NCBI GenBank assembly: GCA_964016885.1
Contig: OZ024745.1
Span: 74,524,001-74,588,000 of the forward strand
DNA from: Eledone cirrhosa
Lineage: Eukaryota
Reading direction: 5' to 3'
Length of the DNA stretch: 64,000 nucleotides
Position numbers and translations under genes: made by a program. Numbering within the stretch: position 1 is the first letter of the stretch; each line of letters begins with the position of its first letter. Under the pieces are notes generated by a model. It had not been told where the DNA came from. It worked only from the letters and a program-made list of their open reading frames with translations, and searched no databases. Shown one piece after another: positions 49,410 to 64,000 of the stretch.

Positions 49410-50035
49410 ATAATATATATATATAATATAATATATATATATATATATATATATAATATATATATATATATAATATAATATATATATATAATATAAAATA
49501 TATATATATATATATAATATATATATATATATAATATATATATATATATATAATATAATATATATATATAATATAAAATATATATATATATATATATATA
49601 TATATAATATAAAATATATATATATATAATATAATATATATAATAACTTTTAAAGGCAAATATTGCCTAAACTAGCTATGCGCGGTTACACGGAAGCTTG
49701 AATTATCTCCTGTGTTATTCATGTATTTTTATATGTTAATCAATCTCTAGTTATTATAATATGCTCAGATGTATTTATCTTTGAGCTTAAATTCTCAGGA
49801 TATATTGGCGCATGCTTTTTGTCATGACACCCATGATTTCGATTTAGATTAAATTCATTTAATTGATTTATCTTAATTTTGGACTTAGATATATATATAT
49901 ATATATATATATATATATATATATATATATATATATATATATATATATATATATATATATATATAATATATAATATATGTTGATTTAAAACTGCACTATC
50001 CACAAGTGTTTTTTAACCTTCATATCATGTCTTCC

Positions 50036-50106
50036 TGTTTTATCTGACGAAAACACAAATATTATTGCATGATGATATTTGTTTTTGAAATGCGCATAAT
50101 AAAATA
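50036..50106 (+). ncRNA. Type I hammerhead ribozyme
   Basis: TGTTTTAT-CTGACGA-AAACACAAATAT..ATATTTGTTTTT-GAAA-TGCGCA-TA^-ATAAAATA; palindromic stem III. Confidence 0.82.
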
Positions 50107-50436
50107 CATGGAACTCTTTTAACCATCTTTTGTTCTTATATATATATATATATATATATATATATATATATATATATATATATATATATATATATATATA
50201 TATATATATATATATATATATATATATATATATATATATATATATATAATATATATATATATATATATATATATATATATATATATATATAATATATATA
50301 TAATATATATATTATATATAATATATATATATATATAATATATATATATATAATATATATATAATATATATATATATATAATATATAAAATAAAGTTAAA
50401 TAAAAGTCAAATGATTAAAATTTAGCTTCGTTTATT

Positions 50437-50491
50437 ACTGCTATATATATTTCAGTGACAGCCATCTTTGGCTGTGACCTCTTCAGGCAGT
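50437..50491 (-). ncRNA. Type I hammerhead ribozyme
   Basis: Minus: ACTGC-CTGAAGA-GGTCACAGCC aaagat GGCTGTCACT-GAAA-TATATA-TA^-GCAGT. Confidence 0.85.
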
Positions 50492-51221
50492 TTGAATTTG
50501 TATGGTATAGACAAGTACATATGTTGTTTAGGTGTATAATATTGTCAATACTCTGATATGCCCAGTTCCTTGTTGGGTTGTTAATTCACTGAGGAACTGG
50601 AGTCATATGAATTCAAACAAACGAATTTCAGTGTCAAAGGTCCCCTTCTCCTCTCATTGGTCAGTTATTAGAACATTCCTCATTCTAAGTGTTGTTATTG
50701 TTGGAGTTAGCTTAAAAATTGATAAAATAGTAGAAGGGACAAGGTGTTAAAGGAACAAAATAACAAAAAAAGTGTCAAACTTCCCATTGGTCAGTTCTGA
50801 AAGCATTCCTCAGTCAGAAGTCTATAGAATTCTTTCTGGGGTGAGGCTCCCTGTAGTGATTTTGCCTGCTATTGTTCAGTACATTTGACCGCCACCATTA
50901 TTTTGGTACTGTTGTTGGTGTAGTGGTCAGCTTATATCTTGCTGCTGCTAACAATTTAGCAGTATCCAGTTTGTGATTTTTTTCTTCATCCCGCCCGCCA
51001 CCATCGTAGTGGTGGTGGTGGGGTGGGGGGGGGGGTTTCTTCCATCTATATGAAGAAATATAAGGCAATAAATGAAAAAAACAGAAAATAAATAAATAAT
51101 ATAATAAAATAATTAATATAATTTGTGTAATTTGAAAATAAATAAATAAATAGAGAATAAAGAATAAAGAATAAATGAGAGATTGGTGAAAAAGTAATGA
51201 AAATGCATATGGAGAAGTGAG

Positions 51222-51410
51222 AAATAATTGTTTTTACTTTAGGCACAAGGCCAGCAAATACCCAGTGCATTACTGGTACTTTATTTTATCGACCCTGTAA
51301 GGATGAAAGGCAAAGTCAACCTCGGCGGGATTTGAACTCAGATCGTAAAGGGACGTAACTATGCTAGAAAGCATGGCGTCCGACCCTCTACCGATACTAC
51401 CAATCCACCG
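51222..51410 (-). mobile_element. SINE family A, full length
   Basis: Complete head-to-tail copy. Confidence 0.9.
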
Positions 51411-51631
51411 TAGGATGAAGTGTGTGTGTGTGTGCTATAACCAATCTCAAGGTCAGAATATGTTGGATAGATTGGTATGAGACAAGATGTTAAGATGAGA
51501 TATTCAAACTCAATGTGTTTGTGTTATAATCTATCTAAACTTAAAATAAATATAAGGTGATACAGTGAAGAGGGCAGAAAACAAATAACAAATTAATAAA
51601 GAGAAATCAAGATTTAAGATTGGAACTTGAA

Positions 51632-62047: not shown

Positions 62048-62448
62048 TAACCATAGTAAGTAAAGTTAATTTTTTAAAATTTATTTTGAAACTTTTTCTT
62101 ATTTGCTAAACCTTGATTATATATGTTCTGGCTCGTTAATTTATTAACCTGCCATTGAACCACATTGGCATATGGTTGGACAATACATGTGTCCCTTAGC
62201 GCCTTGTGCGTGTAGGAACATATACTCTATTATTACTTATCTCCTCTTGGTTGAGAAAAAATTTGGTCACTCTGACTGCTGCTAGTTATAGCGGGAGCCG
62301 ATTGACCTCCCTGCCTCTGCCTCTATCTTTACACACGGCACTTGAAAGAATTGATTCCACTTCATTTTCTCTCATCTCGGGAACAATTTTGAATAGCGCC
62401 AGTTCGTAATTTGAACTCGGGAATTTTATATTCTCCGAGTGAAAAGAT

Positions 62449-62530
62449 CCTTCTGACGAGAGTTTATCTTTGCAACGGATGCCGTATGGACTCCGTTTAT
62501 TTTTGAGACTCGAAACCGATTCGGTAAAGG
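62449..62530 (+). ncRNA. Type I hammerhead ribozyme (element B, copy 2)
   Basis: CCTT-CTGACGA-GAGTTT..AGACTC-GAAA-CCGATTCGG-TA^-AAGG; cut after 62526. Confidence 0.9.
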
Positions 62531-62933
62531 TAACCATAGTAAGTAAAGTTAATTTTTTAAAATTTATTTTGAAACTTTTTCTTATTTGCTAAACCTTGGT
62601 TATATATATATATATATATATATATATATATATATATATAATATATATAATATAATATATATATATATATAATATAATATATATATATATATAATATAAT
62701 ATATATATATAATATAATATATATATATATATAATATAATATATATATGTATATATATATATATATTATATATATATATATATTATATATATATTATATA
62801 TATATAATATAATATATATATATAATATAATATATATATATATATAATATATATATATATAATATATATATATTATATATATATAATATATATATTATAT
62901 ATATATATAATATATATATTATATATATATAAT

Positions 62934-63584
62934 ATCTGAGTGAGTCTCTTGGTCAGTGTCCAAGTCTCAGACCCATACAGCAGCACAGACTCCACTACAG
63001 CAATGAAGAGGCGGATTTTCAGGTCTCTACGAAGGTCCGACTTCCACACCGATCTCAAGCTGTGACACGCCGCCCAGGCCTTGCTCTTCCTCTCAACCAC
63101 ATCATATTCCGTATTCCCAATCTTTGCTCCCAAATACAGGAAGTCCTCAACCAATTCCAGCGGCTTCCCGCCTACATTAGTGATCCCCTCTGGCTTCTCA
63201 ACATTCTCTACAGATGGTGGATGGGTGCTACACGAGAATGCTGAGGATGGGCTCTGAACATTAATCAGTATACATTGAGGATGAAAAACTCAGAGCTGTA
63301 TGGGAGCATCCCAAAAGTCAGCTCAAAAGTGACACAGAGAAGATTGAGGTTGGCTGGACATGCTCACCGACATCCAGAGTTGACATTGCACTCAGTGCTC
63401 CTTTGGGAGCCCCTACATGGACACACTAGAAGAGGAAGACCAAGGTTAACATATGTTAATGCCCTAAGGACAGACACTGGTCTGTTGGAGATGCAGGATA
63501 TGGCAGCGATAATGAGGGACAGAGACCGCTGGAGAGAACTCGTCCATGGATCTCGGGAATTTTACCCGCCTTAGATAGATAGAT
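62934..63584 (+). mobile_element. RTE-clade LINE with 5' inversion (copy 2)
   Basis: 62934-63210 antisense, 63211-63572 sense, (TAGA)n tail; same family as 54102-54968 with a different breakpoint. Confidence 0.9.
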
Positions 63585-63925
63585 ATATAATATAATATAT
63601 ATATTATATATATATAATATAATATATATATTATATATATATATGTATATATATATATTATATATATATATATATATATATTATATATATATATATATAT
63701 TATATATATATATATATATTATATATATATATATATATATATATATATATATATATATATATATATATATATATATATATATATATTATATAATATATAT
63801 ATTATATATATATATATATATATATATATATATTATATATATATAATATAATATATATATATATATAATATGTAATAATGAAATGACAGGAGGCTGGATT
63901 TGTGTAAATCCTTGAAAGGTTTATT

Positions 63926-63983
63926 ATACTATGATCATTTCAATGACCGGGTTCCGTATGAATCCGGTCATATCATCAGGTAT
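63926..63983 (-). ncRNA. Type I hammerhead ribozyme
   Basis: Minus: ATAC-CTGATGA-TATGACCGGATTC atacg GAACCCGGTCATT-GAAA-TGATCA-TA^-GTAT; palindromic stem III. Confidence 0.83.
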
Positions 63984-64000
63984 TCGAAAAAATATAATAC

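Follow-up and report, generated by a model that had tools for sequence, protein, structure and literature searches.

Dimeric minimal hammerhead ribozymes have been described in the pseudo-long terminal repeats (pLTRs) of metazoan Penelope-like elements (PLEs), where they cut weakly in vitro (Cervera and de la Pena 2014, PMC4209133). Hydra and Neptune are clades of PLEs with a C-terminal endonuclease (EN+), for which (TA)n targeting and tails have been reported (Craig et al. 2021, PMC8557442), while in PAc, a Poseidon element of Anolis, two reverse transcriptase (RT) start sites define the genomic tail (Frangieh et al. 2024, PMC11167929). No paper on octopus hammerheads was among those listed by the literature search. 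The 64,000 nucleotide stretch of Eledone cirrhosa DNA analysed here, referred to as the window (assembly GCA_964016885.1, contig OZ024745.1, positions 74,524,001 to 74,588,000, forward strand), harbors ten type I hammerhead motifs in its last 14 kb (49980-64000). We consider it very probable that this cluster consists of eight or more PLE and retrozyme insertions with their 3′ ends at (TA)n, likely pasted in by Penelope-type machinery, and that cutting, as predicted, would occur mainly in own-family pairs.

Hammerhead motifs and their host elements

All ten motifs of the preliminary description of this locus were recovered with the strand, the CUGANGA/GAAA/UH core and the helix III sequence assigned to them (10/10), five lying on each strand. 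Nine are found in 49980-64000 by a permissive type I descriptor, a number far in excess of the mean of 0.023 (maximum 1) in 300 block-wise dinucleotide shuffles. The tenth, at 61251(+), contains a stem II wobble and fails solely the stem II energy cut of this descriptor; it was recovered by the first descriptor and by the Rfam model Hammerhead_HH9 (36.6 bits; E 1.3e-5; gathering score 52). The latter model matches two of the ten motifs, at 32.6 and 36.6 bits, both under its gathering score, and the remaining eight are absent from the Rfam search output at E up to 1. Rfam matches to microRNAs in the window were rejected as microsatellite hairpins. Seven copies have a helix I of 4-8 bp. In the other three it measures 2 bp (55212, 61970) or 3 bp (58914), and this short form is the family state in the families designated F3 and F5 below and, at 61970, a change relative to the tandem partner of this copy.

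The first 50 kb of the window contain a single descriptor match. This eleventh hammerhead (1123-1187, +; core 1131), overlooked in the preliminary description, has the helix III sequence TATGTA and an F1-like helix I, and is situated in an inverted structure that runs on into the left neighbouring DNA. A block-permutation scan of the window for rearranged hammerheads (type SGC and others) found none, at a low sensitivity that recovered only three type I motifs in 1 Mb.

The motifs had been assigned to about eight sequence families of PLEs and retrozymes, and analysis of the families and their siblings upholds both the number and the membership. Each hammerhead resembles those of its siblings and is carried by a young repeat with copies elsewhere in the genome, and the eight dispersed families (F1 to F8) have best copies that are 90-99% identical (40 candidates scored per search). 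Four represent PLE 3′ ends (F1, F2, F3 and F5), three are non-coding tandem retrozymes (F4, F6 and F7), and F8 may belong to either class. Seven families have two fixed 3′ ends, a short and a long one, 40-145 nt apart. The cut positions given below are predicted from sequence.

F1 (49979..50135, +) is a 5′-truncated 3′ end with a hammerhead at 50036-50106 (core 50044, cut 50098; helix III TGCGCA), and F2 (50395..51636, -) is a 3′ untranslated region (UTR) with a hammerhead at 50437-50491 (core 50486, cut 50442; helix III TATATA); both have their short 3′ end in (TA)n. Siblings of F2 (L233-L235) encode an RT and an endonuclease with a CxCX5C linker, no CCHH motif and a C-terminal CxxC/CxH motif, as identified by profile and motif. 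Siblings of F1 (L231/L232) retain only an upstream endonuclease remnant, with the CxCX5C linker and no CCHH, which is ~42-53% identical to the F2 endonuclease; no RT was seen in them. Motifs read from the translations were scored against the features in section 11 of PMC8557442, all of which are present in F2, while F1 displays the linker and the absence of CCHH, and both families are as such putative Hydra-type PLEs. The F2 linker also gives a weak Dam methyltransferase match (E 0.0049), which falls far short of the cut-off; the names Penelope, Hydra and NPPY are absent from the available text of a preprint on retrotransposon methyltransferases. The F2 3′ UTR is split by a short interspersed nuclear element (SINE) at 51221-51409. 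Two distant copies have a SINE at this same position, as different variants (100% and 89% identical to the window copy; L160), which may reflect a favoured site of insertion or nesting that is old in this lineage.

The 3′ UTR of F3 (55096..55861, -) carries a minimal hammerhead at 55183-55214 (core 55212, cut 55185; helix III CG), with a 2-bp helix I and an extra A after A9. Its sibling L236 encodes an RT, with an RVT_1 match short of the Pfam threshold (E 5.7e-5), and an endonuclease whose linker reads CX4CXXC. The linker and CCHH motifs of Neptune are present in the F3 siblings but are also common to Nematis, and F3 is here considered a putative Neptune-like PLE. The window copies of F1, F2 and F3 are 98-99% identical to their siblings. 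F5 (56745..59107, +), a 5′-truncated PLE with a minimal hammerhead at 58911-58945 (core 58914, cut 58942; helix III AT) and a long 3′ end, retains its RT (56752-57651) and GIY-YIG (57771-58523) domains in different frames (Pfam RVT_1 E 7.8e-11; GIY-YIG E 9.6e-7). Its siblings keep an open frame of 905 amino acids, and a repeat spacing of 3125 bp was seen once. The protein homologues, nearly all of which are unnamed, do not settle its clade. Four near-identical full-length F5 copies (L111-L114) are spaced ~175-200 kb apart at C5:12.58-13.15 Mb and the two that were checked share flanks; this quartet is apparently a large tandem segmental duplication.

The three retrozyme families contain one hammerhead per unit, with unit spacings of 516-526 (F4), 467-470 (F6) and 462-485 bp (F7) and longest ATG frames of 34, 20 and 83 amino acids, respectively, which is consistent with non-LTR (long terminal repeat) retrozymes. 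F4 (56468..56748, -) is a piece of a ~520-bp tandem unit with a long 3′ end and a hammerhead at 56627-56703 (core 56698, cut 56632; helix III CTAATTAG). F6 (60254..61505) is a two-armed, head-to-head insertion of a 468-bp retrozyme with hammerheads at 60372-60416 (-; core 60409, cut 60379) and 61244-61288 (+; core 61251, cut 61281), both with helix III CTAG, and its left arm continues into an assembly gap, in which further F6 copies may lie hidden. The F6 family and its unit junction are also present in contigs of four sequencing runs of unrecorded kind, and no RNA run is listed among those containing F6; neither result has a bearing on expression. F7 (61895..62599, +) comprises 1.5 units of a 483-bp retrozyme with hammerheads at 61966-62047 (core 61970, cut 62043) and 62449-62530 (core 62453, cut 62526), both with helix III CCGATTCGG. 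Long single-family retrozyme arrays were also met in the genome background sample described below, at C3:255.00 Mb (L067; ~556-bp unit; CTAATTAG) and C28:110.00 Mb (L292; ~422-bp unit; CTAG).

F8 (63872..64000, -), a two-armed insertion extending ~160 bp beyond the window, has a hammerhead at 63926-63983 (core 63979, cut 63930; helix III TGATCA). Two of its siblings share a body of at least 1,168 nt with neither an endonuclease match nor a fixed tandem period, and it may be either a PLE 3′ UTR or a non-autonomous element; its hammerhead layout and tail resemble those of F1 and F2. The stem II layout common to these three families consists of three positions, a C-pyrimidine mismatch and then a longer stem, and the F8 copy in the window has a G where most siblings carry C.

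The (TA)n target and the density of the cluster

A single shared target had been proposed for these elements, and (TA)n takes this role both in the window and at sibling loci. All eight family 3′ ends in the window adjoin (TA)n. Of 158 sibling loci, 117 have the probed 3′ end inside (TA)n, and many of the rest meet (TA)n at their other fixed end. In a background sample of 100 evenly spaced 10-kb tiles, taken from 25 large contigs of the 3.0-Gb genome and scanned with the same descriptor, 41/77 motifs are followed within 400 nt by a TA array, compared with 22% of random points. No hammerhead match occurs in the 18 tiles that lack such an array. Furthermore, insertions of other families are 1.6-fold enriched around sibling loci, with 40 inside 1.5 kb of 152 loci compared with 25.5 expected (10 overlapping or duplicate loci dropped).

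Two-armed copies across the genome combine one short and one long 3′ end in 74 of 76 cases (a few loci possibly counted twice). This pairing is observed in the PLE families F1 (24/25), F2 (6/6) and F5 (10/10), in the retrozymes F4 (8/8), F6 (11/11) and F7 (5/6), which together give 24/25, and in F8 (10/10); no two-armed copy was found among the F3 copies examined. The pairing matches the PLE tail, which is tied in PMC11167929 to two RT start sites, and its occurrence in the retrozymes lends support from the genome to the view that PLE enzymes mobilise them; the two mapped retrozyme 3′ ends give exact sites for in vitro testing. In the tails of F1, F2, F8 and the TATGTA family (L082, L159, L216 and L034), the sequence separating the two 3′ ends has a short motif in common, ACTCC ... 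GAGTRCT, which is a candidate for recognition by Hydra-type enzymes. These tails share no common structure when folded separately.

A mechanism that could produce such a cluster would begin with nicking of (TA)n by the GIY-YIG endonuclease of a PLE and priming of the RT at two fixed sites of the element RNA, with 5′ truncation leaving only the hammerhead-bearing 3′ end. As TA would be left on both sides of each insertion, the long TA tract would remain a target and gather further elements, including SINEs and pieces of long interspersed nuclear elements (LINEs), while the non-coding retrozymes would use PLE enzymes in trans. Most copies in the cluster are likely inert fragments.

The ten motifs are embedded in a (TA)n-rich block (49183..64000) with 14 arrays of 62-470 bp, (TA)n making up 21% of 49980-64000 compared with a genome mean of 4.7% and a genome median array length of 31 bp. 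Repeat elements ending at TA make up all of the sequence between arrays, with no unique DNA among them, and the stretches that lack hammerheads are filled by SINEs and LINE pieces, suggesting that the block acts as a general TA sink. These include a broken LINE-type RT fragment (51701..53994, -; RVT_1 E 1.8e-12) that adjoins (TA)n and recurs in background tiles, and a rearranged LINE-derived piece (DUF6451) with (TA)n on its flanks (54105..54966). A second copy of the latter is located at 62936-63582, on the opposite side of the assembly gap; the two are 95-98% alike with one common breakpoint, and may represent a local duplication or a false duplication at the gap. A further TA-flanked repeat piece without a hammerhead (49647-49888) is ~80% similar to copies elsewhere with two-armed ends. 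Outside the block, a broken LTR-type element (32485-36656, +) has matches to a zinc knuckle, a protease, an RT and an integrase, each in its own frame.

The region had been described as a hotspot and a comparison with the genome background proposed as a check. The 100 tiles contain 80 descriptor matches, compared with three in shuffles, and against this background the motif density of the region is ~8-fold the genome mean and ~2-fold once TA content is allowed for. Collapsed to insertions, the background of 56 per Mb predicts 0.79 in 14 kb, where eight are observed. The term hotspot therefore stands in this relative sense, while in absolute terms the region lies only in the upper tail of a high and very uneven background: 66 of the tiles contain no match, the top tiles contain 14 and 9 (mostly single-family arrays), two contain six, and the six separate insertions in the best 10 kb of the region are equalled by 1/100 tiles. 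The neighbouring DNA contains four matches in 80 kb to the left and two in 120 kb to the right, with none in the adjacent right 10 kb. Extrapolation gives a rough genome-wide load of ~230,000 hammerheads, on the order of 200,000, which is probably low given that merely 3/23 F8 copies pass the descriptor. These hammerheads seem to come from Hydra-type, Neptune-like and other PLEs, together with retrozymes. The block, at about the top 1%, is probably one of thousands of comparable TA-rich pile-ups in this genome. The locus is likely a real and unusually dense, yet ordinary, pile-up of known kinds of elements.

A gap of 200 N (60054..60253) divides the ten motifs into five and five, and their true spacing is therefore not fixed by the assembly. 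Part of the density could be an artefact of separate loci joined via (TA)n tracts or this gap, for which the long and impure TA tracts (6.5 versus 4.4 doublets per 100 nt in the background), the indel-rich left arm of F6 and the LINE-derived piece on both sides of the gap may be cited along with its position in mid-cluster. The stretches between TA arrays, however, are all repeats that end at TA, with no unique sequence, F1, F2 and F3 retain their near identity to siblings, and each half alone contains five motifs (in 10 kb and 3.7 kb), and we regard such an artefact as unlikely.

F4 and F5 meet head to head at 56733-56748, joined by their 5′ ends with no TA between them, and 15 nt of F4's own inverted second arm are kept at 56734-56748. 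Among the hammerhead families this is the sole clear joint between different families, compared with 101 joints within a family; one further case is ambiguous. If it were a true chimeric insertion, it would name F5 as the helper of F4. As both ends are of the long type, a remnant of the second F4 arm is present and no other F4-F5 fusion was seen among the sibling loci examined, a deletion between two neighbouring insertions appears more likely than their co-integration in one event.

Several observations weigh against the serial accumulation of PLE-driven insertions as a full account of the locus. No helper enzyme could be tied to F4, F6 or F7, which show no match to the 3′ UTR of any autonomous family compared, and no empty site was seen that would document stepwise insertion into a single tract. 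The gap and the left F6 arm, 86-90% identical to its partner, would allow for the joining of two clusters. TA content accounts for just part of the excess, with eight insertions where the number of TA bases predicts 3.5 (Poisson p 0.027, for a region chosen post hoc), and five background tiles with 18-33% TA carry merely 0-3 insertions. Finally, the one PLE assayed in vitro did not depend on hammerhead cleavage for its insertion, and its cleavage required the protein (PMC11167929).

Helix III palindromes and predicted cleavage

The helix III sequences of the ten motifs are mostly palindromic, as previously claimed, and the background is similar in this respect: with no helix III condition imposed, 55/73 background motifs have a perfect palindrome and 63/73 are self-complementary when G-U pairs are included (copies not independent), while no palindromic motif occurs in 3 Mb of shuffles. 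Such frequent self-complementarity fits the published dimer model (PMC4209133). Palindromic helices would be retained because tandem transcripts need homodimers.

Pairing energies were calculated as nearest-neighbour sums, without tertiary contacts. As a monomer, helix III is stable in F7 (-2.0 kcal/mol) and marginal in F4 (+1.5), and in the other seven motifs it is at +4.7 or +6.0 kcal/mol or impossible. The preliminary description held that any read-through transcript on either strand could be cut, yet eight of the ten motifs have neither a stable monomer helix III nor a same-strand partner in the assembled sequence, and such general cleavage is not supported. F7 is the only family with both two same-strand copies and a monomer-stable helix III, and read-through cleavage is predicted mainly at its tandem pair, where it would release a monomer of 483 nt (62044-62526), the upstream copy having a weakened helix I. 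This bears on the alternative of a special functional ribozyme island that ends or dices read-through transcripts on both strands. Five motifs per strand at ~8-fold mean density, and their scarcity in the right-hand neighbouring DNA, would agree with such an island, but all motifs belong to young dispersed repeats resembling their siblings, an equal density recurs in one of the 100 tiles, most motifs are predicted not to cut alone, and no host gene domain was found in the 41 window frames scanned (of 101 frames of at least 100 amino acids). We consider this island highly improbable.

It had further been suggested that the distinct palindromes restrict dimer partners to the same family. Helix III homoduplexes range from -2.9 to -19.4 kcal/mol and 38/43 cross-family duplexes are weaker than -2, as a selected family code that blocks cross-family dimers in a shared niche would require, but mismatch between any two unrelated palindromes gives weak heteroduplexes as the null expectation. 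Type I topology implies that the 3′ strands are swapped in the dimer, such that the partners have to be compatible in helix I as well. In 42/43 cross-family pairs in the region, one helix I has no more than a single contiguous pair irrespective of the palindrome, a mismatch which by itself excludes them. Moreover, palindromes are not family barcodes, with TATATA and CTAG common to unrelated families and CTAATTAG found in several, and the F7 monomer hairpin needs no partner. Dimers are also thought to arise in cis within tandem RNAs (PMC4209133). The suggested partner restriction is weakened accordingly, and a selected code is in our estimation improbable; differences between family palindromes would more likely reflect drift along palindrome-preserving paths, in agreement with the presence of the related palindromes TATATA, TATGTA, TACGTA, TGCGCA, TGCACA and TGTGCA in motifs that have one type of helix I.

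Exclusion by palindrome draws support from related families that share the helix I sequences TTTTAT/ATAAAA but differ in the palindrome, of which the TGCGCA and TATATA families are kept apart by the palindrome alone (+0.2 kcal/mol). However, G-U-containing variants link TATATA, TATGTA, TACGTA and TGCGCA, with TATGTA pairing with TATATA (-8.3), TACGTA (-9.8) and TGCGCA (-5.2 kcal/mol), and the TATGTA family at 1131 has two predicted partners, F1 (TGCGCA) and itself (-20.3 versus -20.5 kcal/mol). It is improbable that helices I and III together form a family lock, in which the palindromes of these sibling families alone were driven apart (TGCGCA versus TATATA). Such a lock, if true, would be a self/non-self code among co-located and co-transcribed PLE and retrozyme families competing for a self-renewing (TA)n niche; no paper on palindrome-based partner exclusion was among the matches listed by the literature search.

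Comparison with described Penelope-like elements and retrozymes

The hammerheads of this locus share with those of PLEs in PMC4209133 the type I fold near PLE 3′ ends, the presence of many families per genome, mostly as solo truncated copies, the extra base after A9 (here in F3 and F5), variants with a 2-bp helix I, the palindromic helix III and pairs on opposite strands 100-700 bp apart. They differ in the load, roughly 230,000 here compared with 2,000-9,000 there, in the common occurrence of longer palindromes (6-8 nt), and in the presence of eight families in one block.

The CxCX5C linker without CCHH of F1 and F2 corresponds to the Hydra pattern of PMC8557442 and the F3 linker fits the CX2-5CXXC consensus of Neptune, while (TA)n targeting, inverted 5′-truncated arms and a tail at one end are likewise features of the PLEs in that study. 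By contrast, the distance between the two ends is ~80-145 nt in F1, F2 and F8 (~40 in F5), compared with a tail of 30-40 bp, and the 3′ UTRs of F1 and F2 alone exceed 1 kb, whereas Hydra elements there are under 3 kb in all.

F4, F6 and F7 resemble the metazoan non-LTR retrozymes (Cervera and de la Pena 2020, PMC7229834; Li, Clavereau and Pollet 2026, 10.64898/2026.07.22.740005) in their non-coding tandem units of 34-38% GC with one type I hammerhead each. Their units of 468-520 bp are larger than the 170-400 nt RNAs reported there, and are known here from DNA alone. They furthermore have two fixed 3′ ends and two-armed (TA)n insertions, and the term 'tail' is absent from the available text of the 2026 preprint. 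The supplementary family lists of this preprint and of PMC8557442 may already include relatives of F1-F8.

A parallel to the insertion ends is PAc (PMC11167929), with which the families described here share the signature of two start sites, an AT-rich target and a hammerhead near the 3′ end. For PAc this signature was established by biochemistry, whereas here it is read from sequence alone, and in E. cirrhosa it extends beyond coding PLEs to non-coding families.

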